A DNA stretch of 64,000 bases from Candidatus Limnocylindrales bacterium (GCA_035626395.1 DASPNR010000013.1:89308-153307), one strand, 5' to 3'. Shown: positions 42,629 through 62,017, counted from the first letter of the stretch. Numbers and translations are program-made. Notes: a model not told the origin generated them from the letters alone.

Positions 42629-45600
42629 ACCCGGGCTCGGCCCGGCGCGCGCTCTCCTGATCCGGCGGCGAGGGCGGCGGCGCCACGGTGCCCGGCGGGC
42701 GCACGCGCGCGCCCGGCGGCGGCGCGGTTGGCTTGGGCGGGCGCTGCTCGGGCAGCGTCGGCGACGGCCCACCGCTGGGCAGATCGTCCGGCGGTCTTCG
42801 CTGCAGATCCTCTTCGGCCATCGGCGCCGTCAGCATGCGCTGGCGTTCCTGCGGCGTCGGATGGCGCGGCGCCATGTAGCGCTCCTCGATGATGGGCCGC
42901 GACGGCGTCGGCACGGCCGGCCTGCTCGGGCTCGGCGGCCGGTAGCTCGAGGAGGGCGGCTGGAAGTCGGGCGGCGGCCCCGGCGCGCGTGCACTCGGCG
43001 GCGGCGGCGTGCGGTGCGTCGGCGGGCTCACGGGCGGCCGGTCCGGCGGGCGCGGCGCCGGAACCGGCTCGCCGGTGCGAAGGTCGACGAAATCGTCCTC
43101 GTCGCGCGCCTCGTCCCGCTGCTCGCCATAGCGATCGATGATGCGCGGCCCGCGGCGCACGGGCTCCTCGACGCTCTCTTCGCGCGGCTCGAAGGGATCG
43201 TCGCGTTCCTGCGGGCTCGGCCGGCCGGAAGCATCCGCTGGCGGCGCTCCCGGCTCACGCGACGGCCGCTCGTACCGCTCCGCGTGCGGCCGCGGCTCCA
43301 CCCGCTCGAAATCGTCCTCCGACATCGTTCTCGGAGGATCCGGCGGCGGCAGCGGCAGGCGGCTGGGCGCGTAGCGGCTCGGCGGCGGCGCCGAGTACCG
43401 GGCGACCGGCGGCGGCCCCGCGCGATCCGCTGGGGGCGGCTCGCGGTCGGCCGGCGCCAAATAGCGGTCGCCGTCGGGAGGAGCCGAGTGCCGCTCGGCT
43501 CTCGGCGGTGCGGAATAGCGGGCAGCCGGCGGCGCGGAGTAGCGGCCCGGCGCCGGGTAACGGTCGGGCGGCGCGTCTCGGTCGGGCGGCGGCACGTATC
43601 GCTCCGGCGGAGGCGCCGCGTGTCGATCGGGCGGAGGCGCGGGCGGCGGCGGCGGAATGTAGCGGTCGGGCGGGCGCGGAGAGGAGCCCTGGGCCGGGAC
43701 GCGGAAGCGGCTGTCGTAGACGGGGCCGGCAGGGCGCTGGTAGCGCGGATCGGGCTCGGCCTCGGCCTCGTCGGGGATGCGGTAGACGCCGTCGTCCTCG
43801 CTTTCGAGGGGCACGCGATACGGATCGTTCTCGGCGGCCTCGACCTCTTCGCGGAAGCCGTCGTCGGGCTGCGTGTCGGGAAAGGTGTCCTCGGTGGCGC
43901 CGTCCTCGCCGGGCTCGGCGAGGATGGGTCTGCGAGGCTCGCGCCTCTCGTTCGCCCACACCGTCGGCGGCTCGATCGGTTCGGTGCCTTCCTTGAAGCA
44001 TTCCAGGAAGGCATCGGTCGTCGCTTCGCTGGCGCGCGTGCCGGAGCCCGCATCGATGTTGACGCAGCGGATGCCGTCGGGAAGCTCGAAGTCGCGCACG
44101 GGCCGAGACTGCAGCGCCGCCTTCATGAACTCGAGCCACACCGGCGCGGCCACGCGTCCACCGGTTCCCATCTTTCCCATGGAACGCGTCTGATCGTCGA
44201 AGCCGACCCAGACGCCCACGACGAGGTCGGGCGTGTAGCCGACGAACCACGCATCCCGCTGGTCGTTGGTGGTGCCGGTCTTGCCGGCAACGGGCCGGCC
44301 CAGCGCCTTGATGGTGGTTGCCGTACCGCGCTGCACGACGCCTTCGAGAATGTACGTCATCAGCGCGGCGGTCTGCGGCGACAACACCTCGCGGCGCCGC
44401 GCCTGCGCCTGGAAGAAGACGGTGCCGGCCTTGTCCTCCACTTTCTTGACGATGACGGGCTCGACCTTGACGCCGCCGCCGGCGAAAGCCGTGTAGCCGG
44501 CGGTCAGGTCCAGCAGCGACATCTCGGAGGTTCCCAGTGCGATCGAGAGGTTGGCGCCGAGCTCGGCGTCGAAGTGAAAGCGCTCCAGATAATCGACCAC
44601 GGTGTCGACACCGACCGCATCGACGAGCTTGACCGAGACCACGTTGCGCGACTGCTCGAGAGCCTGACGGAAGCTGATGGGCCCGCGGTAGTCGCGCGTG
44701 TAGTTTCGGGGCTGCCACGGCTTGCCGTTGTCCATGTACTCGACCGGCGAGTCGCGAAGCATGCTCGCCGGGGTGTAACCGTGGTCGAGGCCGGCTGCGT
44801 AGACGAACGGCTTGAACGCCGAGCCCGGCTGGCGCTTGGCCTGCAGCGCACGGTTGAACTGGGTGCGCAGGAAGTCGTAGCCGCCGACCATGGCCGCCAC
44901 TCCGCCATCCTTCATGTCGATGGCAACCAGCGCCGCCTCGATCTCCGGGGTCTGCGCGAGGTAGAGCTTGTCGGCGGAGGCCGGCTGCTGCGCGGGCGGC
45001 TCCTTGTCGGCTTCGCCGTCGCCGTCTTCGTCGAGATTGATGAACTGGCGCGGCGCCGATTCGCCCGGCTTGCGCGTGCGTACCTCGACGACGTCTCCGA
45101 CCTTGAACGACCTGCTCTTGACCTTCGAGCTCCAGCTGACCGAGGAGGTGTCGACCTTGCCTCGATGCGGGCCCACCACCACCTCGATGCTTCCCGAAGA
45201 GGCCGACGTGACCACGCCCTGATAGATGCGCTCGCGATCGAGCGTGGCCAGGGAAGGATCGGTGGCGTCGCGATCGATGCGCGACTGCATGCTCGTGGCG
45301 TCCAGGTGCTCGAGAGGGCCGCGATAGCCCAGGGCAGTATCGACGCGCTCGATGCCGTTGCGCACGGCGGCCTCGGCCAGGCCCTGCAGCCGCGGATCCA
45401 TCGCCGTGTGCACGGTGTAGCCCTGGTTGTACGGCGCATCCTCGCCGAACATCTCCTCGAGCTGCAGGCGCACCGCCTCGGTGTAGTAATTCCGCACCGA
45501 CTGCCGCTGGTCGGCCTGGGGCGCAAGGGTGAGCTCTTCGCGCAGCGCATTCTGGTAGTCGCCGGCGCTGAGGAAGTTCTCCTCGACCATGCGCCGCAGC

Positions 45601-46277
45601 ACGTAGCGCTGACGCTTCATGGCGGCTTCAGGGTTTCGGCGAGGAGAATATCGACTCGGAGCCGCCGGCAGGCCCGCCAGCAGCGCGGCCTGCGCGGGGG
45701 TCAGCTCGGAGACCTGCTTGTCGAAGTAGCTGCGGGCCGCGGCGCCGACGCCGTGATTGCCTTCGCCGAAGTAGATCTGGTTGAGGTACAGCTCCAGGAT
45801 CTGATCCTTGCTGAGGTGCTGCTCCAGGCGCAGCGCCAGCAGGATCTCCTTCATCTTTCGTTCGTAACTGCGCTCGGGTGTCAGCAGCAGGACCTTGACC
45901 ACCTGCTGCGTGATGGTGCTGCCGCCCTGCACGACCGAGCCGGCGCTGAGGTTGGCGGCGAATGCGCGCGCGATGCCGATGAAATCGACGCCGGAATGGC
46001 TGTAGAAGTCGGCGTCTTCGGAGGCCAGGAACGCGTTGCGCACCACCGGCGGGATCTTCTCGATGGGCACCAGGTAGCGGCGCTCGCGGTAGAACTCCTC
46101 GACCAGGGCGCCGTCGCTGGCAAAAACCCTGGTGGCAACCGGCGGCTCGTATTGAAGCAGGCGTTCGATGGGCGGCAGCGCCGAGGTCATTTCGTCGTAG
46201 GTGGCGAGCACGATCACGCCACCCACCGCGCACACGAGCGACAGCATCACTGCCACCATCCACTTCAGCATCCGCAT
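42570..46277 (-). CDS. mrcA: Penicillin-binding protein 1A (bifunctional transglycosylase/transpeptidase) with a ~466-aa Pro/Arg-rich C-terminal extension
   Basis: GT51 motifs are ASEDADFYSHSGVD, GGSTITQQVVK and RKMKE. Transpeptidase motifs are SAFKP (SxxK), SRN and KTGTT. Confidence 0.95.
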   Translation of the reverse strand: MRMLKWMVAVMLSLVCAVGGVIVLATYDEMTSALPPIERLLQYEPPVATRVFASDGALVEEFYRERRYLVPIEKIPPVVRNAFLASEDADFYSHSGVDFIGIARAFAANLSAGSVVQGGSTITQQVVKVLLLTPERSYERKMKEILLALRLEQHLSKDQILELYLNQIYFGEGNHGVGAAARSYFDKQVSELTPAQAALLAGLPAAPSRYSPRRNPEAAMKRQRYVLRRMVEENFLSAGDYQNALREELTLAPQADQRQSVRNYYTEAVRLQLEEMFGEDAPYNQGYTVHTAMDPRLQGLAEAAVRNGIERVDTALGYRGPLEHLDATSMQSRIDRDATDPSLATLDRERIYQGVVTSASSGSIEVVVGPHRGKVDTSSVSWSSKVKSRSFKVGDVVEVRTRKPGESAPRQFINLDEDGDGEADKEPPAQQPASADKLYLAQTPEIEAALVAIDMKDGGVAAMVGGYDFLRTQFNRALQAKRQPGSAFKPFVYAAGLDHGYTPASMLRDSPVEYMDNGKPWQPRNYTRDYRGPISFRQALEQSRNVVSVKLVDAVGVDTVVDYLERFHFDAELGANLSIALGTSEMSLLDLTAGYTAFAGGGVKVEPVIVKKVEDKAGTVFFQAQARRREVLSPQTAALMTYILEGVVQRGTATTIKALGRPVAGKTGTTNDQRDAWFVGYTPDLVVGVWVGFDDQTRSMGKMGTGGRVAAPVWLEFMKAALQSRPVRDFELPDGIRCVNIDAGSGTRASEATTDAFLECFKEGTEPIEPPTVWANERREPRRPILAEPGEDGATEDTFPDTQPDDGFREEVEAAENDPYRVPLESEDDGVYRIPDEAEAEPDPRYQRPAGPVYDSRFRVPAQGSSPRPPDRYIPPPPPAPPPDRHAAPPPERYVPPPDRDAPPDRYPAPGRYSAPPAARYSAPPRAERHSAPPDGDRYLAPADREPPPADRAGPPPVARYSAPPPSRYAPSRLPLPPPDPPRTMSEDDFERVEPRPHAERYERPSREPGAPPADASGRPSPQERDDPFEPREESVEEPVRRGPRIIDRYGEQRDEARDEDDFVDLRTGEPVPAPRPPDRPPVSPPTHRTPPPPSARAPGPPPDFQPPSSSYRPPSPSRPAVPTPSRPIIEERYMAPRHPTPQERQRMLTAPMAEEDLQRRPPDDLPSGGPSPTLPEQRPPKPTAPPPGARVRPPGTVAPPPSPPDQESARRAEPGFIPYPTRPPPPRPPDVPMQ
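42573..43970 (-). repeat. Low-complexity Pro/Arg/Asp/Glu-rich coding region with degenerate (D/E)RY...PP repeats (PBP1A tail)
   Basis: The region is aa ~770-1235 of PBP1A. An example stretch is PPDRYIPPPPPAPPPDRHAAPPPERYVPPPDRDAPPDRYPAPGRYSAPPAARYSAPPRAERHSAPP. Confidence 0.8.
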
Positions 46278-46410
46278 CGCTCGTATGTCCTTTATAAACC
46301 TTTCGAAAAGCTACCCGCGGTGGCACCGGCGCGCAACACGCCCGCCTGCGCGCGCACGGCCGTTGCGCGGAAGTTGTGAGCGTATGGGCGTCCGGTTATA
46401 GCCCCTCGAC

Positions 46411-47199
46411 GTGAACGCAGACGGGTTCTCCGGCGCCATTCGCCAGGCAGCGGCACTTCTCGCGCAAGCTCGCAGCGTAGTCGTCCTGACCGGCGCCGGC
46501 GTTTCGACCGAGTCGGGCATCCCCGACTTTCGTTCCCCTGGCGGCCTCTGGACCAGATACGATCCGCGCAAGCTGACATTCGATCTCTTCTGCGCGTACG
46601 AAGCCACGCGGCGCGACTACTGGAAGATGTCGACGGAGTCGTATCCGGTCCTGCGCGATGCCGAGCCCAATGCCGCGCACCATGCGATCGTGGCGATCGA
46701 GAAGGCCGGCAAGCTCTTGCGGCTGGTCACGCAGAACGTGGACGGCCTGCACCGAAAGGCGGGCAGCTCGCCCGAGCGCACCACCGAGATCCACGGCTCG
46801 TCGCTGCGCGCCGGCTGCATCGATTGCGGCGCCAGCCACGATCGCGAGCAGCTCCACCGCAGGCTGGTCGCGGGCGAGGTCGTGGTGCCCTCGTGCGACG
46901 TGTGCGGCGGGCGCGTCAAGCCGGCCACGATCTCGTTCGGCCAGTCGATGCCCGAGCGCGAGACGGCGCAGGCGTTCGAGGCGGCCGAAGCCTGCGACCT
47001 GATGCTGGTGGTCGGATCGTCGCTGCAGGTGTATCCGGCCGCCGCGCTTCCGGACACCGCCGTGGCGGCCGGATCGCGCCTGATCATCGTCAACAACGAG
47101 GAGACGCCCAAGGACGACATCGCCGACGTGCTGCTGCGCGGCTCGGCCGGCGAGTCGATGTCGCTGCTCGTGCGCGCGGCGGGTCTCGAGCTTCCTTGA
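46411..47199 (+). CDS. cobB: NAD-dependent protein deacylase (Sir2/CobB)
   Basis: GTG start. GAGVSTESGIPDFRSPGGLW, QNVDGLH, and the Zn-ribbon CIDCG...CDVCGG. Confidence 0.9.
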   Translation: MNADGFSGAIRQAAALLAQARSVVVLTGAGVSTESGIPDFRSPGGLWTRYDPRKLTFDLFCAYEATRRDYWKMSTESYPVLRDAEPNAAHHAIVAIEKAGKLLRLVTQNVDGLHRKAGSSPERTTEIHGSSLRAGCIDCGASHDREQLHRRLVAGEVVVPSCDVCGGRVKPATISFGQSMPERETAQAFEAAEACDLMLVVGSSLQVYPAAALPDTAVAAGSRLIIVNNEETPKDDIADVLLRGSAGESMSLLVRAAGLELP

Positions 47200-48371
47200 T
47201 CCCCTTCGTCGACCTGGCCTCGGATTTCGCGCTCGTCGAAAAGCAGGCGCGAAAGCGCATCGATGACGTGCTCGCTCGCCAGCTGTTCGTGCACGGGCCG
47301 CAGACCGCCGAGCTGGAGCGCGCCATCCAGGAGCTGACCGGCGCCCGCTTTGCCATCGCGTGCTCGTCGGGCAGCGATGCCCTCTACCTGGCGCTGCTCG
47401 CGCTCGGGATCGGGCCTGGCGATGCGGTGATCGTTCCCGCCTTCACGTTCTTCGCCAGCGCCGGCGCCGTCGTTCGCGCGGGCGCCCAGCCGGTCTTCTG
47501 CGACATCGATGACCGCACCTTCCTTGCCGGCGCCGCCCAAATGGCAGCCGCCGTGGATCGCCATTTCGACGGGTCGCTTCGTCACCGCCGCACGCGCGCA
47601 CGGCTGCGCGCGCTGCTGCCGGTGCATCTCTACGGGCGCATGACGGCAATGGACGAGTTGGTGTCGTATGCACGCGAGCGCGATCTGCGCGTGATCGAGG
47701 ATGCGGCGCAGGCCCTGGGCGCGCGGTCGGACGCGGGAGCGGCCGCGGCGGTCGGTGACGCCGGTTGTCTTTCGTTCTATCCGACCAAGAACCTGGGCGG
47801 CCCGGGCGACGGGGGCATGGTCGTGACCAATGACCAGACGCTGGCGCGCCGCCTCTCGCGCCTGCGCGTTCACGGCGCGGCGCCAGGCAGCTACGAGCAC
47901 GAGGACGCCGGAATCAACGCGCGCATGAATGAGCTGGTGGCCGCCGTTCTCAATGCCAAGCTTTCGCACCTGGCGGCCTGGAACGCGCGGCGGCAGGAGA
48001 TCGCCGCTCTGTATGAGCGGCATCTGGCACCGGCGGCCGCGGCCAACATCCTCATCCTGCCGCAGCCGGCCACGGGCAAGGAGCACGTCTGGCACCAGCT
48101 CACGGTGCGTGTGCCCTGCGGCCGCGATGCCGTGCAGGCGCGCCTGGAGCGCGAAGGGATCGCGACGCGGGTTTTTTATCCGCTTCCCCTCCATCTGCAG
48201 CCATGCCTGGCCGCCGAGGGCGGTGCACGCGGCGATCTGCCGGTCAGCGAGCGCATGGCTGAGCAGGTGCTGAGCCTGCCGATCTATCCGTCGCTTGCCG
48301 ACGAGGCGGTGGCGGCAGTCTGCGCCGGCCTGTCCGCTGCGTGCGGCGACGCTGCGCACGGGCAACGATGA
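47196..48371 (+). CDS. DegT/DnrJ/EryC1/StrS-family PLP aminotransferase
   Basis: TTG 47196 overlaps the cobB stop (TTGA) and gives LIPFVDL. SGSDALYLAL, EDAAQALG, SFYPTKNLGGPGDGG (PLP Lys). Confidence 0.85.
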   Translation: MIPFVDLASDFALVEKQARKRIDDVLARQLFVHGPQTAELERAIQELTGARFAIACSSGSDALYLALLALGIGPGDAVIVPAFTFFASAGAVVRAGAQPVFCDIDDRTFLAGAAQMAAAVDRHFDGSLRHRRTRARLRALLPVHLYGRMTAMDELVSYARERDLRVIEDAAQALGARSDAGAAAAVGDAGCLSFYPTKNLGGPGDGGMVVTNDQTLARRLSRLRVHGAAPGSYEHEDAGINARMNELVAAVLNAKLSHLAAWNARRQEIAALYERHLAPAAAANILILPQPATGKEHVWHQLTVRVPCGRDAVQARLEREGIATRVFYPLPLHLQPCLAAEGGARGDLPVSERMAEQVLSLPIYPSLADEAVAAVCAGLSAACGDAAHGQR

Positions 48372-48498
48372 CCAACGTGCGTGCGCGAGCGCGGCGTTGC
48401 CCGAAGGCAGCGTGGACGATGGCCGCAACGCGGCGCCGTCGCCGCGCGCTCGTCCCCGCAGCGACGGTGCCGAGGCGCGCGTCGCGGGGCCTGCCGCG

Positions 48499-49284
48499 AT
48501 GAAGAGGCCACCGTTCGTTCTTGCCATCGGCGGCCTCGATCCGAGCTGCGGCGCCGGCATCGTGGCCGACGCGCGCACGCTCGAGCGGCTCGAAGTCATG
48601 CCGCTCGCCGTCGCCACCGCGGTGACCGTGCAATCGGGAGGCGGCGTGCGAGCCACGCACCCGGTTCCCGTTCCGCAAGTGACGGCACAGCTGCGCGAGC
48701 TTCTGCGCGCCTTTCCCGCATCGGCAATCAAGATCGGCCAGGTGCCGTCGGCGGCTTGCGCCGCCGCGCTGGCCGCTACGCTGCGCCCGCTGACTGCGCG
48801 AGTGCCGCTGGTGCTCGATCCTGTCTTGCGTGCTTCGGGCGGCGGCGAGCTGGCTGGGCCCGCGGCGGCGCGCGCCATCCTTGCGCGGCTCCTGCCGCTG
48901 GCGGCGGTGGTGACGGTCAACCTCGACGAGGCGGCCGTGCTGACCGGTATGGCGGTGCGCGACGTGGACGGGATGTCGGCCGCGGCGCGCCGCCTCTCGT
49001 CGCGGACGACCGGAGCCATCGTCATCAAGGGCGGGCACCTGCGCGGCCAGCCTCTCGACATGCTGTTGCACGAAGGCTGCGAGCGGATTTTTCGCGGCAC
49101 GCGGCTGCGCGGTTCGATGCACGGGACCGGGTGCGCATTCGCCAGCGCGATGGCGGCGGCGCTGGCGCGCGGCATGAGCGTCGAAGCCGCACTGGTCGGC
49201 GCGAGAAAGCACGTGCGCGAATTGCTGACGCACGCCGTCACTGCCGGCGGCGCACGATTGCGCGCGCCCCGCCGCGTTCGTTGA
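48499..49284 (+). CDS. thiD: Hydroxymethylpyrimidine/phosphomethylpyrimidine kinase
   Basis: Internal ATG 48499 (MKRPPFVLAIGGLDPSCGAGIVAD), IKIG, VLDPV, GTGCAFASAMAA. Confidence 0.85.
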   Translation: MKRPPFVLAIGGLDPSCGAGIVADARTLERLEVMPLAVATAVTVQSGGGVRATHPVPVPQVTAQLRELLRAFPASAIKIGQVPSAACAAALAATLRPLTARVPLVLDPVLRASGGGELAGPAAARAILARLLPLAAVVTVNLDEAAVLTGMAVRDVDGMSAAARRLSSRTTGAIVIKGGHLRGQPLDMLLHEGCERIFRGTRLRGSMHGTGCAFASAMAAALARGMSVEAALVGARKHVRELLTHAVTAGGARLRAPRRVR

Positions 49285-49463
49285 GATTGGCGTGTGGGCA
49301 CTGATATAGGTGCGTCATCAAAGACGCACCGCCCACCTCCCTGTCCGACAAGGCCGCGGCCGCTTCCGAGCGCCATCGCGGCACGCGCCGTCATCTGCGG
49401 CTTCTCGAAGAGCTGACGCTGTTTCTCGGACGCACGCCCGATTCCCAGGAAGCGCTCGAGGGT

Positions 49464-51746
49464 GTGGTACGCATGCTCGCCAGCGCCTTCGATTGCGAAG
49501 TCTGCTCGCTCTACAGCTTCGATCCAGGGACCGAAATCCTCAGCCTTGCAGCAACGCACGGCCTGCCCTCACGCAGCATCGGCCGCGTGACCATGAGCAA
49601 GAACGAAGGCCTGGTCGGTCTCGTGGTCGAGCAGCAGTCGCCGGTCGTCGTCGTGGATGCGCTGACGCATCCGCGCTTCAAGTTCTTCCCGGAAACGGGA
49701 GAAGAGAAGTACCACTCCTTCCTCGGCGTGCCGGTGGGCGAAGGCCTCGGCACGATCGGCGTGCTCGTCCTGCAGAGCCGGCGCCGCCGCCGCTTCACCA
49801 ACGAAGAGATCATGCTGGCGCGCTCGGTCGCGGGTCAGGCGCGCGCGCTGATGGTGAACGCGCACCTGTCCGAGCGCCTGCAGCACCAGGAAGAGGAGCG
49901 CGAGCGTTACCGGCGCGAGATGCAGAAGGCGATCCAGCGCCTGGAGGCGTTCGAGATCGGCAAGCGTCGCATCGACCGCCATCTCGACAGCGGCGGCGTG
50001 CTGCATCTGTCGGGCCTGGGTGCGTCGCCGGGATTCGGCATCGGACGCGCACACCGACTGGAGAAGCCCGTCGAGATCGAACGCATCGAGCTCAAGCCCG
50101 GACGCGGATACGAAAGCGAGCGCAGCCGCTTCGAAGCCGCGCTGGCCGAGGCCATCAAGGAAGTGGACGAGGCGCGCGAGCGCATGGGCGAGCTGGTGCC
50201 GGAGGTTGGCGGCGCCATGTTCGAAGCGCTGCGGATGATGATCGAGGACCGCTCCTTCACCAGCCGCATTCACGAGGAGATGGAGAAGGGCCTCTGCGCC
50301 GAAAGCGCGGTGCGCGTGGTGGTGCTCGACTACGTGCAGCGCTTCAGCACGATGAGCGACGACTACCTGCGCGAGCGCGTCTCCGACGTTCGCGAAACCG
50401 GGCAGCGCATCCTGCACCACCTGCTCGGCGTGGACGCACCGGTCCCCGAGGTGCGCGAGCACGCGGTGCTGGTGGCCTCCGAGCTCACCATCACCGATCT
50501 GGCGGCGATCGATCATTCCAAGCTCGAAGGCATCGTCACCTCGGCCGGCGGCGTCACCTCGCACGCCGCCATTCTCGCGAAGTCGCTCGGCATCCCGACC
50601 GTGGTCGGCGCGGCCGGCGTCTACGAGGCCGCGCGCGAGGGTTACGAAGTCATCGTCGACGGCAACTCGGGCACGGTCTACGTGCGCCCGGGCGCCGACG
50701 TCATCGCCGAATACCGCCGTCTGGACACCGAGTATCGCGAATTCCAGCGAGGGCTCGCCCATCTTCGCGACCTGCCGGCCGAGACCCTCGACGGTCACCG
50801 CGTAAGCCTGCTCGCCAACGTCGGATTGATCAGCGAGCTCGATCTGGTCGAGCGCTTCGGCGCCGAGGGCATCGGCCTTTATCGCACCGAGTTTCCGTTC
50901 CTTTCGTACCGCGATTTTCCGACGGAGGAGGAGCAGCTGCGGCTCTACAAGCGCGTGATGACGCGCATGCGCGGCCGCCCTGTCACCATTCGCACGCTCG
51001 ATCTCGGGGCGGACAAGTATCCGCTGTTCGCGCAGCAGACGCGCGAGGGCAACCCCTTTCTCGGCCTGCGCTCGATTCGCGTTTCGCTCGAATCGGAAGA
51101 CACGTTCCTCGATCAGCTTCGCGCCATCCTTCGGGCCGCCAGCGAGTTTCCCGTTCGCATCCTGTTCCCGATGATCACGAGCGTCGAGGAGCTGCGGCGC
51201 GTGCGCGAGCTCTACGCGGAGTGCCTCTCCGACCTGTCGCAGAACGGTTTTGTGCCCGCGCCAGGCATCGAGCTGGGAGCGATGATTGAGGTGCCGGCGG
51301 CCGTCTTGCGCGCGCCCGAGATCCTGCGCGAGGTCGACTTCGTCTCCATCGGCACCAACGACCTGATCCAGTACACGCTGGCGGTGGACCGCGACAATCT
51401 GAAGGTCGCCTCGATGTACGAGCCGCTGCATCCGGCCGTGCTGCAGTCGATCCGCATCGTGGTAGACGCCGCGCGCGAGGCGGGCCGCCGCGTCGGCATG
51501 TGCGGCGAGATGGCGGGCAACCCGCTGTGCACGCTGCTGCTGGTGGGAATGGGGCTGGACGAGCTGAGCATGGGGTCGCTCTACATTCCGGTGGTCAAGC
51601 AGATCATCCGCAGCGCGCGCTACGATGACGCGCAGCGCATCGCCCAGGACGTCCTGCGCTGCGACACGGTCGAGGAAGTCAAAGGCTACGTCTTTTCCGC
51701 CCTGCGGGAGCGCGGGCTCATCGAGCTGGTCGAGACGTTCACCTGA
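49464..51746 (+). CDS. ptsP: Phosphoenolpyruvate-protein phosphotransferase PtsP (GAF + Enzyme I); the true start is probably upstream of 49464
   Basis: GAF region (CEVCSLYSFD...GVLVLQS). EI motifs are GGVTSHAAILAKSLGIPTVVG (active His), GLYRTEF and IGTNDLIQYTLAVDR. Confidence 0.9.
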   Translation: MVRMLASAFDCEVCSLYSFDPGTEILSLAATHGLPSRSIGRVTMSKNEGLVGLVVEQQSPVVVVDALTHPRFKFFPETGEEKYHSFLGVPVGEGLGTIGVLVLQSRRRRRFTNEEIMLARSVAGQARALMVNAHLSERLQHQEEERERYRREMQKAIQRLEAFEIGKRRIDRHLDSGGVLHLSGLGASPGFGIGRAHRLEKPVEIERIELKPGRGYESERSRFEAALAEAIKEVDEARERMGELVPEVGGAMFEALRMMIEDRSFTSRIHEEMEKGLCAESAVRVVVLDYVQRFSTMSDDYLRERVSDVRETGQRILHHLLGVDAPVPEVREHAVLVASELTITDLAAIDHSKLEGIVTSAGGVTSHAAILAKSLGIPTVVGAAGVYEAAREGYEVIVDGNSGTVYVRPGADVIAEYRRLDTEYREFQRGLAHLRDLPAETLDGHRVSLLANVGLISELDLVERFGAEGIGLYRTEFPFLSYRDFPTEEEQLRLYKRVMTRMRGRPVTIRTLDLGADKYPLFAQQTREGNPFLGLRSIRVSLESEDTFLDQLRAILRAASEFPVRILFPMITSVEELRRVRELYAECLSDLSQNGFVPAPGIELGAMIEVPAAVLRAPEILREVDFVSIGTNDLIQYTLAVDRDNLKVASMYEPLHPAVLQSIRIVVDAAREAGRRVGMCGEMAGNPLCTLLLVGMGLDELSMGSLYIPVVKQIIRSARYDDAQRIAQDVLRCDTVEEVKGYVFSALRERGLIELVETFT

Positions 51747-51866
51747 TCCCCTGCCCGAGTGAAGCCCGGATCGATCGCCCGTCGGCGCCTCGGGCGCGGC
51801 CGGTTCGAATCGACTCCGGGCCGGAAGAGAAGCTGCGCTGACGGAATACGCGCAGGCGGGGCAGCG

Positions 51867-52673
51867 TTAGGTCGGCGTGCCGCCGGTGTGCGCCTGAAGC
51901 CATTCGATGACCGCATCGACCGCACGCGGGTCGAGCAGCATGTTCTTGCCGCCTCCTGACTTCTCCACCGGCGCGAGCAGCGTCGGTTCGGCGGCGGGAA
52001 TCGTCACCAGCTTGGTTTCGAGCTTCTTGTCCTTGAAGTTGTCGCGCGCATCGGCCGGAAAGCGGCCGCGCTGGTAGAGGTCGTCGGGCAGCTTGTCGGA
52101 GACGACGATCAGCGTGGGCGCATCCACCTGCACGATGTCGGTCTCTCCGACCATGTTCGAGAACAGGATGACGCCTGCCGGCGGCTTCACCTGCGCATAG
52201 CGCGAGTAGATTCCCACGATCGTGTCGGTGCCCCAGGCGTGGCCGAACAGGAAGACCTTGTCCGGATCCACCTTGGCGTGCTCGACCGCGTGCGTGTACG
52301 CCTCCAGCGCATTGGAGCGGACGGTGGCATAGCGGCCCGGGCTGCTGCGACCGGTGCCGGGAGAGTCGAAGCGAAAGACGGCGAAGCCCGCGGCGACCAG
52401 CCGCTTGGCGAGCTGCGCGTAGATGCCGGTGTCGAGGTCGGCGCCGTAGCCCGGGGGCAGGCCGTGTCGGTCCAGCGCCTCCGATGCCGGGATCAGCACC
52501 ACCAGCGGCGCGGGCGTTCGCGCGGGAAATTCCCACTGCGCTGCCACGGTGGCATCGACGCTCTTGAACGTCGTCTCGACGACCTCACCGCGAGCGGTTG
52601 GGTCGGCGATGGTGACGGCTTGGGCGGTACGCGCAGGATGGAGCGAAGCTGCCGCGGCCAGGGCGAGAACCAT
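51867..52673 (-). CDS. Secreted alpha/beta hydrolase-like protein
   Basis: ATG 52673 (MVLALAAAASLHPARTAQA); an alternative TTG at 52733 adds an n-region. LVVLIPAS, FRFDSPGTGRS, and the elbow-like FLFGHAWGT (His-Ala-Trp in place of the classic GxSxG). Confidence 0.65.
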   Translation of the reverse strand: MVLALAAAASLHPARTAQAVTIADPTARGEVVETTFKSVDATVAAQWEFPARTPAPLVVLIPASEALDRHGLPPGYGADLDTGIYAQLAKRLVAAGFAVFRFDSPGTGRSSPGRYATVRSNALEAYTHAVEHAKVDPDKVFLFGHAWGTDTIVGIYSRYAQVKPPAGVILFSNMVGETDIVQVDAPTLIVVSDKLPDDLYQRGRFPADARDNFKDKKLETKLVTIPAAEPTLLAPVEKSGGGKNMLLDPRAVDAVIEWLQAHTGGTPT

Positions 52674-52744
52674 GACGACGCGTCTTCCGGCGAGGAGATG
52701 ACGGCCGGCGCCGGCCTTGTTCGTGGTGACCAAGCGAGCGCCGC

Positions 52745-53401
52745 TCAGAGGGGTTTCTTGGCGAAGTACCAGTCGGTGACTTCGAACTGCGGATCCCTGG
52801 CGCGATCCTCGGCGCCCTTGGCCGTCAGCGGCGGCGGCTGGATGACCTTGTCGCCAGGCCTCCATCCCTCGGGCGTCGCCACGCCGTGCTGCGTGGAGGT
52901 CTGCAGCGAGTTCACCAGGCGAAAGATCTCGTCGACGCTGCGGCCGTTGGTGAGAGGGTAGTAGACCATCGCCCGCAGGTTCTGGTCGGGATCGATCACG
53001 AAGACGCAGCGGACGGTCGCCGTGGAGGACGCGCCGGGATGAACCATGCCGTAAAGCTGCGCCACCTTCATGTCGAGGTCGGCGATCATGGGATAGCGGA
53101 TCTCGATGCCGAATTTGTCCTTGATGTTCCGAGTCCAGGCGATGTGCGCGTAGATGCTGTCGATGGACAGGCCGATGAGCTGGACGCCGAGCTTCTCGAA
53201 ATCGTCCTGCCGCCGCGCGAACTCCATGAGCTCGGTGGTGCACACGGGCGTGAAGTCGGCGGGGTGGGAGAACAGCACCACCCATTTCCCCTTGTAGTCG
53301 GAGAGCTTGATCGGACCGTGCGTGGAGACCGCTTCGAACTGCGGTGCCGGCTCCAGGAGCCGCGGCAGCGAAGGTTTGGGAGCGGCTTGGGCTTCGGTCA
53401 T
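52745..53401 (-). CDS. 1-Cys peroxiredoxin (Prx6-like)
   Basis: Internal ATG 53401 (MTEAQAAPKP). WVVLFSHPADFTPVCTTE, and a C-terminal extension typical of the Prx6 type. Confidence 0.9.
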   Translation of the reverse strand: MTEAQAAPKPSLPRLLEPAPQFEAVSTHGPIKLSDYKGKWVVLFSHPADFTPVCTTELMEFARRQDDFEKLGVQLIGLSIDSIYAHIAWTRNIKDKFGIEIRYPMIADLDMKVAQLYGMVHPGASSTATVRCVFVIDPDQNLRAMVYYPLTNGRSVDEIFRLVNSLQTSTQHGVATPEGWRPGDKVIQPPPLTAKGAEDRARDPQFEVTDWYFAKKPL

Positions 53402-54230
53402 GGGAGCAACCTCCGAACGTTCTTGCGCAGCCGAAGGCGCGCCGAGGGTGAGTTTCCGCGGAGGGGCAGGGTTGTCAAACAGGAGGCACGAGCATGCGAA
53501 AGACCGGTTCCTCCTGCCGTTCGAGCTCATGGCGCGCCCCTCGAGCTGGCGCTCGTCGTGTCATTCCACCTCCCGCGTCAACCGACATGGGCATCGAACG
53601 CAGCGCCGGACGCCGAACACTGACGTTCCAGAACACCGCCCGCTACGAATCCGCCAGCGCCTTCTCGAGCTTTCCGGCCTCGGTCTTGGCCCGTTGCTGC
53701 CCGCCGTGCGAGCGGCAGTAGGCGATCACGATCGGTGTCAGCGTACCGCGGGAACGGACGACGGCGAAGGCCTCAGGCGATCTGCAGCACCGGCTTCGGA
53801 AGCCGTTTTCGAGCGCCGGAATCTGCACGACCTGGCAACGGAAGCAGCTGCCTTCTCTGACTACAGTTCCAACCATTCTTCGCCACGATGCATGCGAAGG
53901 GTAGCGCGGCGGGTGGATGGTGCCAGGGATGCTTGTGCGGCGTCCTGTGCGATGCACACGCTCTTGGTTGGACGAATGACGGATCGATAGCGCATATCGA
54001 CGCAGTCGCAGCCGGCATCACCGGTATCGGACGCGGACTTGTCACAGGCAGATTCGAGCCGTTGTCGTTCCATGAGACCGGATCCCGGCCAGCCACGTTC
54101 CGCTCTGGTCTGGCGTCCGGGAGCGAAACCGGCTGCCCGCAGGCGCAACCATGCGGCCGCCGGGACTGCCGGCCACCCCTAGCGCGGTGGCGAGACGCGG
54201 AAGCCGCGACCCGGTGCCAGAACGGATCGG

Positions 54231-57587: not shown

Positions 57588-57865
57588 GCCGCGTCGCCGC
57601 TGCGCGGCCTTCGCAACGGTTCGCTGCCGTTCGAGCACACGGCCGGCGCGAGGATAGGGCATACGCACGCGGCCGACCGCCGTTCCGGTCTTACGGGCGG
57701 ATGTTGCCGCGGCGCGGACTGACGCGGTGCGGCATGCGGACGGAACGCGTGCACCGCTTCGTATAGTGCGATTTGTCACTTGGCGCAGCCGCGCCAACTC
57801 GCTACCTTTCGGCACCATTTTTTAGGACGTCCAAAACCGAAACCCATGGTGGGAGGGTCAGGGGC

Positions 57866-60800
57866 ATGTCTTACACTTCGTCGCGCCTCGCGATTCTTTG
57901 CTTTGGTTTGTCCGTCGCCGTCCAGGCGTTCCCCGAACGTGCGCCGGCTGCCGAAGTCGGTACCAACGACTTTCGGATCAGCGTCATGGGCACGGACGGC
58001 GACACGACGGTCAACGTCAACACACAGGCCGTCGCGTACAACGGTGATCAGACCGAATACCTGGTCGTCTGGTCGGCCGATGAGATGCTCAACGGCGAGT
58101 TCGAGATCTACGGCCAGATCGTCGCCGCCGACGGCTCCCTTCTAGGTTCCGATTTCCGGCTGAGCGACATGGGGCCGGATCTGAACGCGAGTTATGACGC
58201 CACCGTGCCGGCCGTCGCGTACAACGCGGCGACGAACGAGTACCTCGTCGTCTGGCGCGGCAACGACGGGACGAGCGAGAACGACATCTACGGCCAGCGC
58301 GTGGACGCCGATGGTGTCGAGGTCGGCACGAACGATTTCCGCATCAGCGACGTCGGCTCGCTCAGCTACGCGGCCAATGCGCCGGCCGTAACGTGTCACG
58401 ATACCAACGGCGAATGCCTGGTGGTCTGGGAGGCCGACTACGAGACGGTGACGGCGAACGATGAAATCGAGATTTTCGGACAGCTTCTCGACGGCACCGG
58501 CAACGCCATCGGCACGAACGACTTCCGCATCAGCCGCATGGGCCCCGACAACAACGCCAATTACGATGCCGATGCCCCGCGCGTGGTCTACAACAGCGCC
58601 AACGACGAATACTTCGTCGTGTGGGTGGCCGAGGATGACAGCCTGCCGCTGATCGACGGCGAGTTCGAGGTGTACGGCCAGCGTCTGACGTCGGCCGGAG
58701 CCGAGACCGGCAACGACGACTTCCGCATCAGCGACGTCGGCATCGACGGAATCGCCGCCACCAGCGCCAGTGCTCCCGCCGTCGCCTACGACCCGGACGC
58801 CGGCGAGTACCTCGTCGTGTGGTCGGCCGACGAGACGAGCGGGCAGAGCGAGATCCACGGCCAGCGCTTGACCGCATCGACGGGCGCCGAGGTGGGGACC
58901 AACGACTTCCGCATCAGCGACATGGGGCCCGATGGCAGCTCCTCCTACGGCGCCTTCACGCCGGCCGTGGCCTACAACGGCATCAACGACGAATTTTTCG
59001 TTGTCTGGCAGGGGGACGACGACACCTCGCCTCTGGTCAACAACGAGTTCGAGGTCTTCGGCCAGCGCATCGCGAGCGGCACCGGCGCCGCGGTGGGCGC
59101 CAACGACATGCGGCTGAGCGACATGGGCGTCGACGGCAACGTGGCATTCAACGTGGCTGCCGGCGTCAGCGTCGCCTTCAACGCCGCCAGCCTCGAGTAT
59201 CTCGTTGCGTGGACGGGCGACGACACGACCGATGGCGAATTCGAGGCGTACGGCCAGCGCGTCTCCAACTGCGGCGATTCCACCATCGACACAGGGGAAC
59301 AGTGTGACGCCGGCGCCAGCAACGGCGCCGCGGCATCGTGCTGCTCGGCAACCTGCAGCTATCGCCCGGTCGACTACATCTGTCGCGGCGCCGCCGGCGA
59401 GTGCGACGTGGCCGAAACCTGCACGGGCGCGAGCGCGAGCTGCCCGTCCGACTCCTTGCAGCCCGCGGATTCCACCTGCACCGATGACGGCAACGCCTGC
59501 ACCAGCGACCGCTGCGACGGCAGCAGCACGGCGTGCCAGCACGCGGCGGGCAATGCCGGCGCCGTCTGCCGTGCAGCCGTCGACGACTGCGACGCTGCCG
59601 AGGTGTGCGACGGCTCTTCCACGTCGTGCCCGGCCGATGTGCTCGATGCCGCCGGCACGGCGTGCGCCAGCGACGGCAATCCCTGCACCGTCGACCAGTG
59701 CGACGGCGTCAACACCGCCTGCCAACATCCCGCCGGCAATGCCGGCGCGACCTGCCGCGCAGCAGCCGGCGAGTGCGACGCCGCCGAGATCTGCGACGGT
59801 GCCGACCCTGCCTGCCCCGTGGATGCGAAGGTCGCCTCCGGCACGTCCTGCAGCGACGACGGCAACGCCTGCACGGAGGATCGCTGTGACGGGAGCGGCG
59901 ATGCGTGCCAGCATCCCGCCGGCAACGTCGGCGCCGTCTGTCGCGCGGCCGCCGGCGAATGCGACGTCGCCGAGACCTGCGACGGCACCGCCACGTGCCC
60001 GACCGATGGGCTGACCGATGCCGGGACGTCGTGCAGCAGCGATGGAAATCCCTGCACGATCGACCAGTGCGACGGCGCGAGCGCACTGTGCCAGCACCCT
60101 GCCGGCAACGCCGGCGCCACCTGCCGAGCGGCCGCCGACGAGTGCGATGCGGCCGAACTGTGCGACGGCGCCAGCACGACCTGTCCGGGCGATGCCAAGC
60201 AGTCGGCCGACACCGCATGCACGGACGACGGCAACGCCTGCACGCTCGACCGCTGCGACGGCTCCAGCGACGCATGCCAGCACCCCGCCGGCAATACCGG
60301 TACGGTCTGCCGCGCCGCGGCCGGAGAGTGCGATATCGCCGAGACCTGCGACGGCACCGCCACGTGCCCGTCCGACGCGCTCGTGCCGGCCGATTCCTCG
60401 TGCACCAGCGACGGGAACGTCTGCACGAGGGACGTCTGCGACGGCTCGAGCCCGCTGTGCCAGCATCCGGCCGGCAATGCCGGAACCGTCTGCCGGGCCG
60501 CGGCCGGCGAGTGCGACACCGCCGAGACCTGCAGCGGGGAAGCCGCCGAGTGCCCCGCCGACGCCAAGGCGCCCGCGGACACGACCTGCTCGAGCGACGG
60601 CAACGTCTGCACGCTCGATCGCTGCGACGGCTCCAGCGACACCTGCCAGCACCCGGCCGGCAACGCCGGCACGGTCTGCCGCGCTGGCTCCGGTGATCTG
60701 TGCGACCCCGACGAGCTGTGCACCGGCTCGGAGGCCGACTGCCCCGCCGACGTCGTCCAGCCCGCCGGCACCGTCTGCCGCGCCGGCTCGGGTGATCTCT

Positions 60801-62017
60801 GCAACAGCGACGAGACCTGCAGCGGAACGGCGGGGGCCGCGTGTCCGGCCGATGCGTTCGAGCCATCCACGACGGTTTGCCGCTCGGCTGCGCATGACTG
60901 TGACTCCGCCGAGCTATGTCCCGGCACGCCGGCGGGGTGCCCGTCGGATGCAGATCTGCCCGATGGAACGAGCTGCGACGACGGCGACGATTGCACGATC
61001 GACGAAGTCTGCAGCGGCGGCGTCTGCGGCGATGCCACGCGCATCTGCATCGATGAGTTCGTTGCCTATCGCGTCAACTCCTCCGATGCCGCCGACACGC
61101 TCCCCAAAGGATGGAACGTCACGTTGAACGATGAGCACGTTGCCGACGGCGACGGAGACGATCCGGAAAACCACGCCGCCAAGAAGACGATGGGCCTGCT
61201 CACTCCGGCGGGCAGCGATGGAACTGGCATGGCGGTCGAGCCCGCGCTGCATTACCTGCGCTACCAGGTCGGCCCTGCCGGTGACGGCGCCAGCGCGATG
61301 CTCGCGAACGGCGCGTTCCCGCCTACGGTGGCGCACATCCCCCGACGCTGGGAGCTCACCAACCAGTTCGGCACGATCGTCGTCGACTCGCGCAAGGTGA
61401 CGGCGATGCTGGTGCCCGCCGCTACCGGCGACACCGGCCCGCTCGTCGCCCCCAGCGGCAAGAACCACTTCCTGTGCTACCAGGTGCGTACGGCCAAGGG
61501 AGTCGCCAGCGATCAGACTCCCGAACTTGCTCCCGGCGTCACCAAGTTCCGCACCGATCTGCAGGGATACTTCCGCGACACGTTCGACGACTGCGCCACC
61601 GACGCCGACGGCGGCATCGGCTTCGAGGGTACCAGCGTGGAAGGGCACTGCCTCTATGATCTCAAAATCCCCGTGGAGCTGTGCAGCCCGGCGGCGATGA
61701 GCGAGGTCGAGCCGCCGCGGGAGAGTGCGGCGACGATCGAAGAGTCGAACCCGGTCACGCCGTTCGCGCTGCTCTGCTACAAGTCCGGCCTCGCGCGCGT
61801 CTGGAAGAGCGAGGAGGTGGCGGCGCTTGCCGGCGGAACGGCCGGCGCGCGCATTGAACCGAACCAGTCGCCGCACCAGGTGCACTCGCTGACGACGGGC
61901 AATCCAGTCGAGGTGGCTCCTGCCAGCGGCTTCATCTCGCCGTCGGCGCTCGACACGGTGCCCTCGCGCACGATCTGCGTATCGACGGCGGTGACGGACG
62001 TTCAGATGCTGCCTTGA
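57866..62017 (+). CDS. 1,383-aa secreted mosaic protein: 7 propeller-like repeats + disintegrin-like Cys-module array + 4 C-terminal modules; function unknown
   Basis: ATG 57866 follows GGGAGGG (57851-57857). The signal peptide is MSYTSSRLAILCFGLSVAVQA|F. The ORF track start (TTG 57773) lacks both an SD and a signal peptide. The internal repeat structure is given in the findings. Confidence 0.85.
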   Translation: MSYTSSRLAILCFGLSVAVQAFPERAPAAEVGTNDFRISVMGTDGDTTVNVNTQAVAYNGDQTEYLVVWSADEMLNGEFEIYGQIVAADGSLLGSDFRLSDMGPDLNASYDATVPAVAYNAATNEYLVVWRGNDGTSENDIYGQRVDADGVEVGTNDFRISDVGSLSYAANAPAVTCHDTNGECLVVWEADYETVTANDEIEIFGQLLDGTGNAIGTNDFRISRMGPDNNANYDADAPRVVYNSANDEYFVVWVAEDDSLPLIDGEFEVYGQRLTSAGAETGNDDFRISDVGIDGIAATSASAPAVAYDPDAGEYLVVWSADETSGQSEIHGQRLTASTGAEVGTNDFRISDMGPDGSSSYGAFTPAVAYNGINDEFFVVWQGDDDTSPLVNNEFEVFGQRIASGTGAAVGANDMRLSDMGVDGNVAFNVAAGVSVAFNAASLEYLVAWTGDDTTDGEFEAYGQRVSNCGDSTIDTGEQCDAGASNGAAASCCSATCSYRPVDYICRGAAGECDVAETCTGASASCPSDSLQPADSTCTDDGNACTSDRCDGSSTACQHAAGNAGAVCRAAVDDCDAAEVCDGSSTSCPADVLDAAGTACASDGNPCTVDQCDGVNTACQHPAGNAGATCRAAAGECDAAEICDGADPACPVDAKVASGTSCSDDGNACTEDRCDGSGDACQHPAGNVGAVCRAAAGECDVAETCDGTATCPTDGLTDAGTSCSSDGNPCTIDQCDGASALCQHPAGNAGATCRAAADECDAAELCDGASTTCPGDAKQSADTACTDDGNACTLDRCDGSSDACQHPAGNTGTVCRAAAGECDIAETCDGTATCPSDALVPADSSCTSDGNVCTRDVCDGSSPLCQHPAGNAGTVCRAAAGECDTAETCSGEAAECPADAKAPADTTCSSDGNVCTLDRCDGSSDTCQHPAGNAGTVCRAGSGDLCDPDELCTGSEADCPADVVQPAGTVCRAGSGDLCNSDETCSGTAGAACPADAFEPSTTVCRSAAHDCDSAELCPGTPAGCPSDADLPDGTSCDDGDDCTIDEVCSGGVCGDATRICIDEFVAYRVNSSDAADTLPKGWNVTLNDEHVADGDGDDPENHAAKKTMGLLTPAGSDGTGMAVEPALHYLRYQVGPAGDGASAMLANGAFPPTVAHIPRRWELTNQFGTIVVDSRKVTAMLVPAATGDTGPLVAPSGKNHFLCYQVRTAKGVASDQTPELAPGVTKFRTDLQGYFRDTFDDCATDADGGIGFEGTSVEGHCLYDLKIPVELCSPAAMSEVEPPRESAATIEESNPVTPFALLCYKSGLARVWKSEEVAALAGGTAGARIEPNQSPHQVHSLTTGNPVEVAPASGFISPSALDTVPSRTICVSTAVTDVQMLP
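57956..59266 (+). repeat. Seven ~55-65-aa coding repeats (NDFRISDMGPDG...PAVAYN...EYLVVW...EFEIYGQR)
   Basis: Repeat starts read directly at ORF-track residues 62, 127, 248, 315 and 377, plus 187 and 443. Each has four conserved beta-strand-like segments. Confidence 0.8.
59381..61027 (+). repeat. Seven 61-62-aa (about 186-bp) tandem Cys-rich coding repeats followed by three 33-34-aa half-units
   Basis: The unit is CRAAAGECDxAExCDGxxxxCPxDxxxxxGTxCxxDGNxCTxDxCDGxxxxCQHPAGNAGxx. CR positions in ORF-track numbering are 537, 599, 661, 723, 784, 846, 907, 969, 1002 and 1036. Confidence 0.9.

Follow-up and report, generated by a model that had tools for sequence, protein, structure and literature searches.

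The disintegrin and cysteine-rich arm of the ADAM proteins is commonly presented as an innovation of eukaryotes. The disintegrins of snake venoms carry RGD/KGD on a mobile loop, have no structural Ca2+ sites and bind integrins, and in ADAMs the loop is buried and sterically inaccessible and the arm is rigid (PMC4885070). In dictyostelids, the EcmA/EcmB-family proteins have Cys-rich repeats behind a signal peptide (PMC4406040). We followed up a sequence-only reading of a 64,000-nucleotide stretch of DNA (the window), which had proposed a tandem array of disintegrin-like modules at 59270–61048. The observation is confirmed, and its interpretation is supported in part. The interval lies inside a single gene (Table 1) and its limits are exact, nt 59270 being the first base of Cys500 (numbering of the ORF 57773..62017) and nt 61048 the last base of Cys1092, the final Cys of the cap. 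This mechanical ORF, on the + strand, starts at a TTG at 57773, and a GGGAGGG lies about 10 nt upstream of the ATG. By inspection, the N-terminus resembles a signal peptide: it begins with a few polar residues that include Arg, continues into a hydrophobic core and has AVQA ahead of FPER. Homologues were found for the N-terminal part, for the array and for the C-terminal part of the protein, which is most likely secreted, from a soil-type Candidatus Binatia bacterium, with the array in its middle. The gene neighbours (a PAS histidine kinase, UvsE and PtsP) gave no clue to function.

Table 1. Features of the array gene, in window coordinates.
Feature	Coordinates (nt)	Strand	Basis or content
Whole-protein gene	57866..62017	+	ATG 57866, stop 62017, 1383 aa from ATG
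Signal-peptide-like N-terminus MSYTSSRLAILCFGLSVAVQA	57866..57928	+	Inspection of translation
Beta-propeller head	57935..59269	+	Seven ~62-aa repeats, AlphaFold2 model
Entry module CGDSTIDTGEQCD...CC..C	59270..59380	+	aa 500-536, 5 Cys
Array A1-B1-A2-B2-...-A7-B7-A8-A9-A10	59381..60949	+	10 A + 7 B modules
Cap module CDDGDDCTIDEVCSGGVCGDATRIC	60974..61048	+	aa 1068-1092, 5 Cys, degenerate B-like
C-terminal region, 322 aa	61049..62014	+	Four divergent DUF7450-like units

The array is built from two kinds of four-Cys module, A (pattern CR..xCD..E.C..CPxD, 10 copies) and B (C..DGN.CT.D.CDG....C, 7 copies), which together with entry and cap hold 78 Cys. The half module said to be reiterated 10 times (CR...ECD...CP-x-D) corresponds to A1–A10, and the division into seven double and three half modules also stands. 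The doubles are not all 62 aa as first described: the CR-to-CR period runs 62, 62, 62, 61, 62, 61 and 62 aa, so that two are 61 aa long, and then 33 and 34 aa through the three A-only units. The cap that ends the array had been left unnamed. Tandem Repeats Finder reported a period of 186 nt with 6.5 copies (71% matches, score 906) and one of 369 nt with 3.3 copies (76%, score 1190). The loop motif C[DN]..[ED].C.G.{3,6}C..[DN] occurs 10 times, against 0.0035 occurrences expected from composition-preserving shuffles of the same region. Its tetrapeptides are GECD, which we counted five times rather than six, DECD, DDCD, HDCD, DLCD and DLCN.

The disintegrin relationship was borne out by the Pfam Disintegrin profile (PF00200), which scored 138.4 bits over 10 stretches of the whole protein (E=1.4e-40; cut-off 35.1) and 40.3 bits on entry plus A1 alone. 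An A module covers positions 47–75 of that model, B+A 23–75 and entry plus A1 34–75, and the best stretch extends over positions 22–75, so that the full 75-position domain is not covered; judged by this coverage, the repeats are part-domains, comprising the loop hairpin and the segment ahead of it. The protein as a whole also passes Pfam Dicty_CTDC (PF00526; 47.2 bits over 6 stretches, cut-off 27 bits), single B modules scoring 19.9–22.7 bits, under the cut-off. PDB sequence matches were limited to P-III snake-venom metalloproteinases (SVMPs) and ADAM22, to which A+B aligned ungapped through all four Cys of the 'wrist' (Cw). A+B and 3k7n share exactly the same Cys spacing, 6-5-6-11-6-4-6. An AlphaFold2 model of aa 496–690 (pLDDT 93.6) shows the disintegrin fold. 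Foldseek matches of this model in the PDB at E<=0.001 were exclusively ADAM or SVMP D/C regions (ADAM10, ADAM17, ADAM22, VAP1, RVV-X and K-like proteinase), free disintegrins coming lower in the list. [quoted passage not shown] Because A+B aligns gap-free to the ADAM loop hairpin plus Cw, the natural unit of the repeat, as read from these alignments, is A+B and not B+A, and B is not a foreign element. Of the two other profiles proposed at the outset, PF08516, the ADAM_CR 'hand', gave nothing in the window protein at E<=10 in Pfam, and TIGR02232 (cut-off 20.8 bits) was likewise not hit, no NCBIfam family of any kind matching at E<=10; the Pfam and NCBIfam scans of this protein also returned no peptidase family that would correspond to an upstream zinc metalloproteinase of the reprolysin type.

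Seven of the 10 A modules match the ADAM Ca2+ site III consensus, CD(X)2(E/D)XCXG(X)4C(X)2(D/N), exactly and all 10 match it loosely, the three non-exact modules having a one-residue change in loop length or a D->N replacement. The site II consensus, XCGN(X)3EXGEXCD, is matched once, by the entry (NCGDSTIDTGEQCD), with D in place of N and of E, each an oxygen ligand; by this match the entry appears equivalent to the ADAM 'shoulder', that is, Ca2+ site II plus the CC segment. From these consensus sequences and from homology, we infer that the modules bind Ca2+ and derive their putative disulfide map. In 980 A modules from 120 relatives, CD is preceded by V in 285, E in 191, A in 99 and D in 89. 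In A modules it is the site III consensus that is conserved and not 'ECD', whose retention in the array does not speak for integrin binding. By sequence and by analogy with the ADAM arm, the conserved xCD loop is most likely a structural element rather than an integrin-binding site.

The array is flanked by two further domains. The head repeat (GTNDFRISDMG...PAVAYN...EYLVVW...EFEIYGQR) is common to more than 1400 proteins, a subset of which also has T9SS sorting or dockerin domains, and the AlphaFold2 model of the head is a seven-bladed beta-propeller (pTM 0.91, 28 strands) for which Foldseek found generic propeller matches only, at 8–14% identity. The C-terminal region, with the motifs F.AYRV, HYLRYQV, HFLCYQV and LLCYKSG, scores under the Pfam DUF7450 (PF24247) cut-off of 27 bits, at 16.3 bits in the whole protein and 19.7 bits when searched alone. 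It is linked by phmmer to the relatives P0102 (E=2e-63), P0343 (5e-17) and P0148 (1e-13), and the latter two have tails that align with the tails of P0132 and P0146, both of which pass the DUF7450 cut-off.

Arrays of this kind are neither unique nor rare. Our A+B profile matches 6202 representative protein clusters, mainly from Binatia and Myxococcota; the bacterial relatives span these groups, Planctomycetota and others, and oomycete relatives exist (P0167). The array belongs to a kind found in thousands of uncharacterised bacterial proteins already visible in databases, among them one with 24 consecutive A modules encoded by the cultured Sorangium cellulosum So ce56. The shortest arrays have a few matched stretches and the longest 46, genomes carry several paralogues each, and some relatives are almost wholly array, which suggests that the array itself can be the functional part and not a spacer. 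Relatives retain entry, array and cap together with one of a few C-terminal domains, and swap the N-terminal head, which may be a propeller, CBM96, DUF3466/HAF repeats or a putative metalloprotease. The 12 commonest patterns cover 132 array ends, and in 109 of these the last A is followed 8 residues on by a B/cap-like Cys module. P0102, from a Terriglobales MAG, has the same head, an array and the C-terminal region, and the best full-length relative is 40–47% identical to the window protein. In P0137 the putative metalloprotease lies directly upstream of the array, and its entry passes TIGR02232 at 41.1 bits. What is specific to the window protein is the combination of head, module number and order, and divergent C-terminal region. 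Our literature search found no paper on the function of array proteins and no experiment on any bacterial member, in agreement with the sequence-only reading, which knew of no described function.

A model that accommodates these data, and to which we give a probability of about 0.6, is that the array would be a Ca2+- and disulfide-stiffened extracellular stalk joining the propeller head to the DUF7450-like region. The protein would be exported by Sec and its 78 Cys then oxidised; one structural Ca2+ would be buried in each A module and one in the entry, about 11 in total, and each loop would pack on the next module, as in the Da/Cw arm of ADAMs. The Cys of 'xCD' would probably bond forward and that of 'E.C' backward, stapling neighbouring modules into one continuous stiff rod that would serve as a stalk or spacer, keeping the N-terminal propeller away from the C-terminal region. 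We favor this model because relatives swap heads and keep entry-array-cap plus a C-terminal domain, because array length varies widely among them, because the residue before CD is variable and because the ADAM loop is buried within a rigid arm (PMC4885070). The Cys parity (5 each in entry and cap, 4 in each A and B) also argues for it, being compatible with a chain of inter-module bonds and with a disulfide between the xCD Cys of the loop and a Cys of the wrist, as does the module order: 94% of 3070 A modules directly precede another A or a B/cap-like module. More tentatively, the A+B units could represent an undescribed rod, in which ADAM-type 'arm tip plus wrist' segments, each with a buried Ca2+, are daisy-chained by forward and backward disulfides. 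The eukaryotic ADAM disintegrin/wrist arm may descend from a bacterial module and not the other way round, an idea raised by the abundance and diversity of the building block in Binatia and Myxococcota; P0137 would then be a bacterial counterpart of the M-D arrangement. We regard this extension as less likely than not.

The array could instead be a multivalent adhesin, its variable module surfaces binding polysaccharide, a prey or host surface or an integrin-like receptor and its repetition providing avidity. ADAM D/C regions and free disintegrins participate in adhesion (PMC4885070), units differ in the residue preceding CD, in the G-x4-C loop and in their linkers, and both the oomycete relatives and the carbohydrate-binding CBM96 heads are in line with such a role. 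We nevertheless consider it unlikely: the residues that are conserved are exactly those of the buried Ca2+ site, the equivalent loop is sterically inaccessible in ADAMs (PMC4885070), no loop of the array contains RGD or KGD, and the host belongs to an uncultured Binatia lineage without known animal association. A structural matrix or sheath component, whose Cys-rich arrays would cross-link mutually or with polysaccharide as proposed for Dictyostelium EcmA/EcmB, is harder still to reconcile with a protein that has distinct head and tail domains, with even Cys counts that fit closed internal pairing and so leave no obvious free Cys for cross-links, and with a neighbourhood devoid of polysaccharide-synthesis genes. 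We judge it improbable, even though the B modules pass Dicty_CTDC at the whole-protein level, the signal peptide and Cys-rich repeats recall the dictyostelid proteins, many relatives consist of little but a very long array and there are several paralogues per genome. Recent transfer from an animal ADAM gene to yield an effector against eukaryotic integrins, for which the similarity to ADAMs and SVMPs in sequence and fold might speak, is highly improbable given the diversity of the bacterial relatives, which number in the thousands (Binatia, Myxococcota, Planctomycetota and others), an array G+C of 0.68–0.70 that equals that of the remaining window, an identity to animal proteins of only ~17–34% in the Foldseek alignments, and the lack of both a metalloproteinase and the ADAM_CR 'hand' domain.

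These findings bear on how such proteins are annotated and studied. 'Disintegrin' matches in Binatia and Myxococcota would be better described as structural Cys-rich repeats than as integrin ligands. The exact loop-plus-wrist segment of the ADAM arm is repeated in tandem in thousands of proteins secreted by bacteria, with the same Cys spacing and, apparently, both structural Ca2+ motifs. With these arrays, the role of the buried 'ECD' loop can be studied in a natural setting, and our results suggest that this role is structural and not integrin binding. The arrays also open a way into the question of how the ADAM arm evolved, and may constitute a family of stiff protein rods of tunable length.

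[quoted passage not shown] Unlike ADAMs, the window protein lacks a metalloproteinase, the ADAM_CR 'hand', a transmembrane segment and a cytoplasmic tail, and whereas loop and wrist occur once in ADAMs and SVMPs, the array, which is bacterial, has seven in tandem plus three that are loop-only, the shoulder being present once, in the entry. The A hairpin superposes on free snake-venom disintegrins (rhodostomin, acostatin, trimucrin) at ~2 Å over ~55 residues, but its loop, unlike theirs, has a Cys and a Ca2+ motif, as in ADAMs. The B modules match the Dictyostelium 24-residue Cys-rich repeat (Dicty_CTDC, EcmA/EcmB), both being found in secreted Cys-rich proteins; unlike in pure Dicty_CTDC arrays, B alternates here with disintegrin-loop modules. 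The first half of the entry (CG..x..GE.CD) resembles the TIGR02232/DUF4215 Myxococcus cysteine-rich acidic repeat. Finally, the same entry-array-cap grammar, with both A and B modules, is found in the bacterial proteins annotated as 'cysteine-rich repeat', 'slime mold repeat-containing' or Disintegrin-domain proteins of Binatia and Myxococcota, such as those of Sorangium cellulosum So ce56 (locus L003) and of a Binatia locus (L001).

At whole-protein thresholds, the array protein is a member of the Pfam families Disintegrin (PF00200; 138.4 bits, cut-off 35.1, 10 stretches) and Dicty_CTDC (47.2 bits, cut-off 27, 6 stretches). Scanned singly, the entry module with A1 also exceeds the Disintegrin cut-off (40.3 bits), an A module alone covers model positions 47-75 and B+A covers positions 23-75. 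Two other profiles that the sequence-only reading had proposed as checks have no match in the array protein: ADAM_CR (PF08516) in Pfam and TIGR02232 in NCBIfam, the latter collection giving no match at all. Searches of PDB sequences with the array matched P-III snake-venom metalloproteinases (SVMPs) and ADAM22 only. A profile of the seven A+B units aligned to PDB sequences (E-values 2e-9 to 1e-5) in one gap-free stretch that starts at the 'CR' Cys, takes in the loop, CPxD and linker, and includes each of the four wrist (Cw) Cys of ADAMs; the A+B Cys spacing, 6-5-6-11-6-4-6, is that of K-like proteinase 3k7n. Our assignment of B as the wrist rests on this alignment and spacing, a lone B module being too short to match any PDB sequence. 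An AlphaFold2 model of aa 496-690, made from 17 in-register homologous segments, has a mean pLDDT of 93.6; at E<=0.001 in the PDB, Foldseek matched it to nothing but ADAM10, ADAM17, ADAM22, VAP1 and K-like proteinase, to RVV-X, VAP2 and other SVMPs just beyond E 0.001, and lower in the list to free disintegrins (superposition about 2 A over 55 residues). The profile, spacing and fold matches show that the disintegrin reading of the array was right. The natural unit is A+B, which corresponds to the tip and wrist of the ADAM arm. B, the equivalent of Cw, is at the same time a Dicty_CTDC-type repeat.

The module layout, established by parsing with regular expressions and by a table drawn up by hand, runs from nt 59270, the first base of Cys500, to nt 61048, the last base of Cys1092, with 78 Cys in 593 residues from entry through cap. 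The array has 10 copies of the loop motif, where shuffled sequences would give 0.0035, and there are no additional A or entry modules elsewhere in the 64-kb window in any frame. The earlier description of the array stands apart from small miscounts: GECD occurs five times rather than six, and two units have 61 aa.

Features of the array-protein gene (nucleotide positions in the window unless marked aa)
Feature	Position	Strand	Description
Array-protein ORF	57773..62017	+	single long ORF holding the whole array
Seven head repeats of ~62 aa (GTNDFRISDMG...EYLVVW...EFEIYGQR)	57935-59269	+	modelled as a seven-bladed beta-propeller, pTM 0.91
Entry module	aa 500-536	+	CGDSTIDTGEQCD...CC..C, 5 Cys
A modules (n=10)		+	CR....xCD..E.C.G....CP.D, 4 Cys each
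B modules (n=7)		+	C..DGN.CT.D.CDG....C, 4 Cys each, alternating with A1-A8
Cap	aa 1068-1092	+	B-like, 5 Cys

The array carries a higher-order repeat at 59474-60684 (+), in which a two-unit period of 369 nt (3.3 copies, 76% matches in Tandem Repeats Finder) beats the 186-nt period (6.5 copies, 71%). Over the same stretch, B modules alternate between an odd form, DDGNAC..DRC, and an even form, SDGNPC..DQC, and A4 and A6 have the same one-residue deletion. Units two apart are more alike in DNA sequence (identity 0.747 at lag 2) than adjacent units (0.703 at lag 1), which indicates that the array grew partly by duplication of two-unit blocks.

ATG 57866 is the likely start codon of the gene, as judged by inspection of the sequence: it is preceded by GGGAGGG and the resulting N-terminus resembles a signal peptide. 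Long antisense and off-frame ORFs over the array (58142-61050, minus and other plus frames; 917, 558, 385 aa and others) were rejected; these are Ala/Arg/Gly-rich, homologues and domain matches occur in the + frame of the array protein only, and they look like by-products of G+C-rich repeats. Upstream of the gene is a PAS histidine kinase, preceded at a greater distance by PtsP and a class A PBP (PBP1A); downstream is a UvsE gene in convergent orientation. None of these neighbours offered an operon-level clue to the role of the array protein, and promoter and terminator scans around the gene gave background levels. The PBP gene, 42570-46277 (-), is itself unusually long (1235 aa); its PBP1A-family model match stops at residue 722, and the roughly 500 unmatched C-terminal residues coincide with a G+C peak of 0.74 at 42001-44000. 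The window PtsP is 92% identical to a Candidatus Binatia MAG protein, and later named matches are mostly from Binatia too; on the strength of PtsP, the host was assigned to Binatia. Synteny with this MAG (GCA_035626675, locus L081) extends over 42429-53405 of the window and breaks from about 53405, and the histidine kinase and array genes are absent from the corresponding place, which puts the array gene in a variable segment.

Relatives of the array are numerous. More than 3000 proteins were among the matches listed in the array search, which took in at most 8000 candidates, and those with names are called 'hypothetical', 'cysteine-rich repeat protein' or 'slime mold repeat-containing protein'. 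The A+B profile, run against 1.84 billion representatives, gave 6202 matches at E<=1e-3, of which 1119 also reach E<=1e-30; a single protein has as many as 46 stretches. In a genome scan, 145 loci were confirmed, the majority of them from Binatia, Myxococcota and MAGs labelled 'Deltaproteobacteria'. Consecutive A modules number 24 in Sorangium cellulosum So ce56 and 32 in one MAG. There are often several loci per genome (L037, L041, L042, L060 and L071 in one MAG; L024, L038 and L067 in another), which points to multi-copy paralogue families. Tandem disintegrin-loop arrays also exist beyond bacteria and animals, as shown by an oomycete protein of 956 aa (P0167, Thraustotheca clavata) whose 11 Pfam Disintegrin stretches consist of A-like modules in alternation with another type of Cys-rich module. 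The earlier statement that bacterial poly-disintegrin arrays have no described function held in the literature searched: searches for publications on disintegrin or Cys-rich arrays of bacteria, on the ADAM counterpart of these arrays and on the Dictyostelium repeat yielded none that describes what a bacterial member does, and one genome paper lists the Pfam family and no more. A 2026 preprint on 'CysRReps' was ruled out as a description of such arrays, its Cys pattern being different. The array protein is one of a large class of secreted bacterial proteins with Cys-rich arrays, a class visible in databases but unstudied.

In ADAMs and SVMPs, two buried structural Ca2+ sites have the consensus XCGN(X)3EXGEXCD (site II) and CD(X)2(E/D)XCXG(X)4C(X)2(D/N) (site III), and the (D/S)xCD loop packs onto Cw, is bonded to it by the disulfide Cys468-Cys499 and is inaccessible for protein-protein interaction (PMC4885070). 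Seven of the 10 A modules match site III exactly, the other three differing by a one-residue loop change or D->N, and the entry module fits site II apart from N->D and E->D. The sequence-only reading had described the ECD tripeptide as kept in most units of the array. In the 980 A modules from 120 relatives, the position preceding CD is occupied by V in 285, E in 191, A in 99, D in 89 and others in the rest, so that ECD is not conserved as such. By consensus comparison, the conserved residues of A modules are the Cys and the putative Ca2+ ligands, which argues for a structural xCD loop.

The Cys number is odd in entry and cap (5 each) and four in each A and B module. In medium disintegrins, one disulfide links the 'CR' and 'CP' Cys, and another runs from the 'E.C' Cys back to the CC segment upstream. 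Combined with the loop-to-wrist bond of ADAMs (PMC4885070), this pattern predicts one forward and one backward inter-module disulfide for each A module. The modules would then form a continuous disulfide-stapled chain that needs a starter and a cap. In a check of this predicted disulfide map by correlated Cys loss over 1304 distinct A-B-A instances, most of the apparent losses were single and look like alignment shifts.

The relatives have a common grammar, consisting of signal peptide, variable head, entry, array, cap and one of a few C-terminal domains; in 241 proteins, 3070 A modules are followed directly by another A in 72% of cases and by a B/cap-like module in 22%. The propeller head of the array protein found only generic propellers in fold searches (8-14% identity). 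Its repeat family is very large (at least 1423 matches), elsewhere accompanies T9SS sorting and dockerin domains, and has a precomputed PF22847 tag that our Pfam scan did not reproduce. Beyond the cap lies a region homologous to the C-terminal parts of three relatives (P0102, P0343, P0148); it resembles the DUF7450 repeats found at the end of many array proteins, its own score being below the Pfam cut-off. Other relatives (P0130, P0135-P0137, P0140, P0153, P0215) end in thrombospondin type 3-like Asp-rich repeats, then a beta-rich domain closing in ...C(K/R), and still others, such as P0127 and P0142, carry the motif K.K.D..KDKL.WKW.KG after the array.

The most likely role of the array, we propose, is that of a stiff extracellular stalk stabilised by Ca2+ and disulfides; tunable in length, it would separate an exchangeable head from a conserved base. 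The array may instead be a multivalent adhesin, or the protein may be a matrix component comparable to Dictyostelium EcmA/B. It is unlikely that the array was recently transferred from animals, because the range of bacterial relatives is broad, the G+C of the array is that of the remaining window and identity to animal proteins is low.

Our analysis adds the equation of A+B with arm tip and wrist, a Ca2+-site account of the conserved loop, the starter and cap grammar and the scale of the family. One bacterial relative, P0137 (991 aa), has the same order as an ADAM, a putative protease and then a disintegrin: a domain at about 20-310 contains HEIGHGLGF and matches the karilysin active site and, weakly, the NF038122 'metallo_LGF' metalloprotease model (40 bits against a cut-off of 80); it is followed directly by an entry module, which passes TIGR02232, and a disintegrin-like array (311 onward). 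The array protein of the window is not an ADAM: metalloproteinase, ADAM_CR hand and membrane tail are all missing from it.
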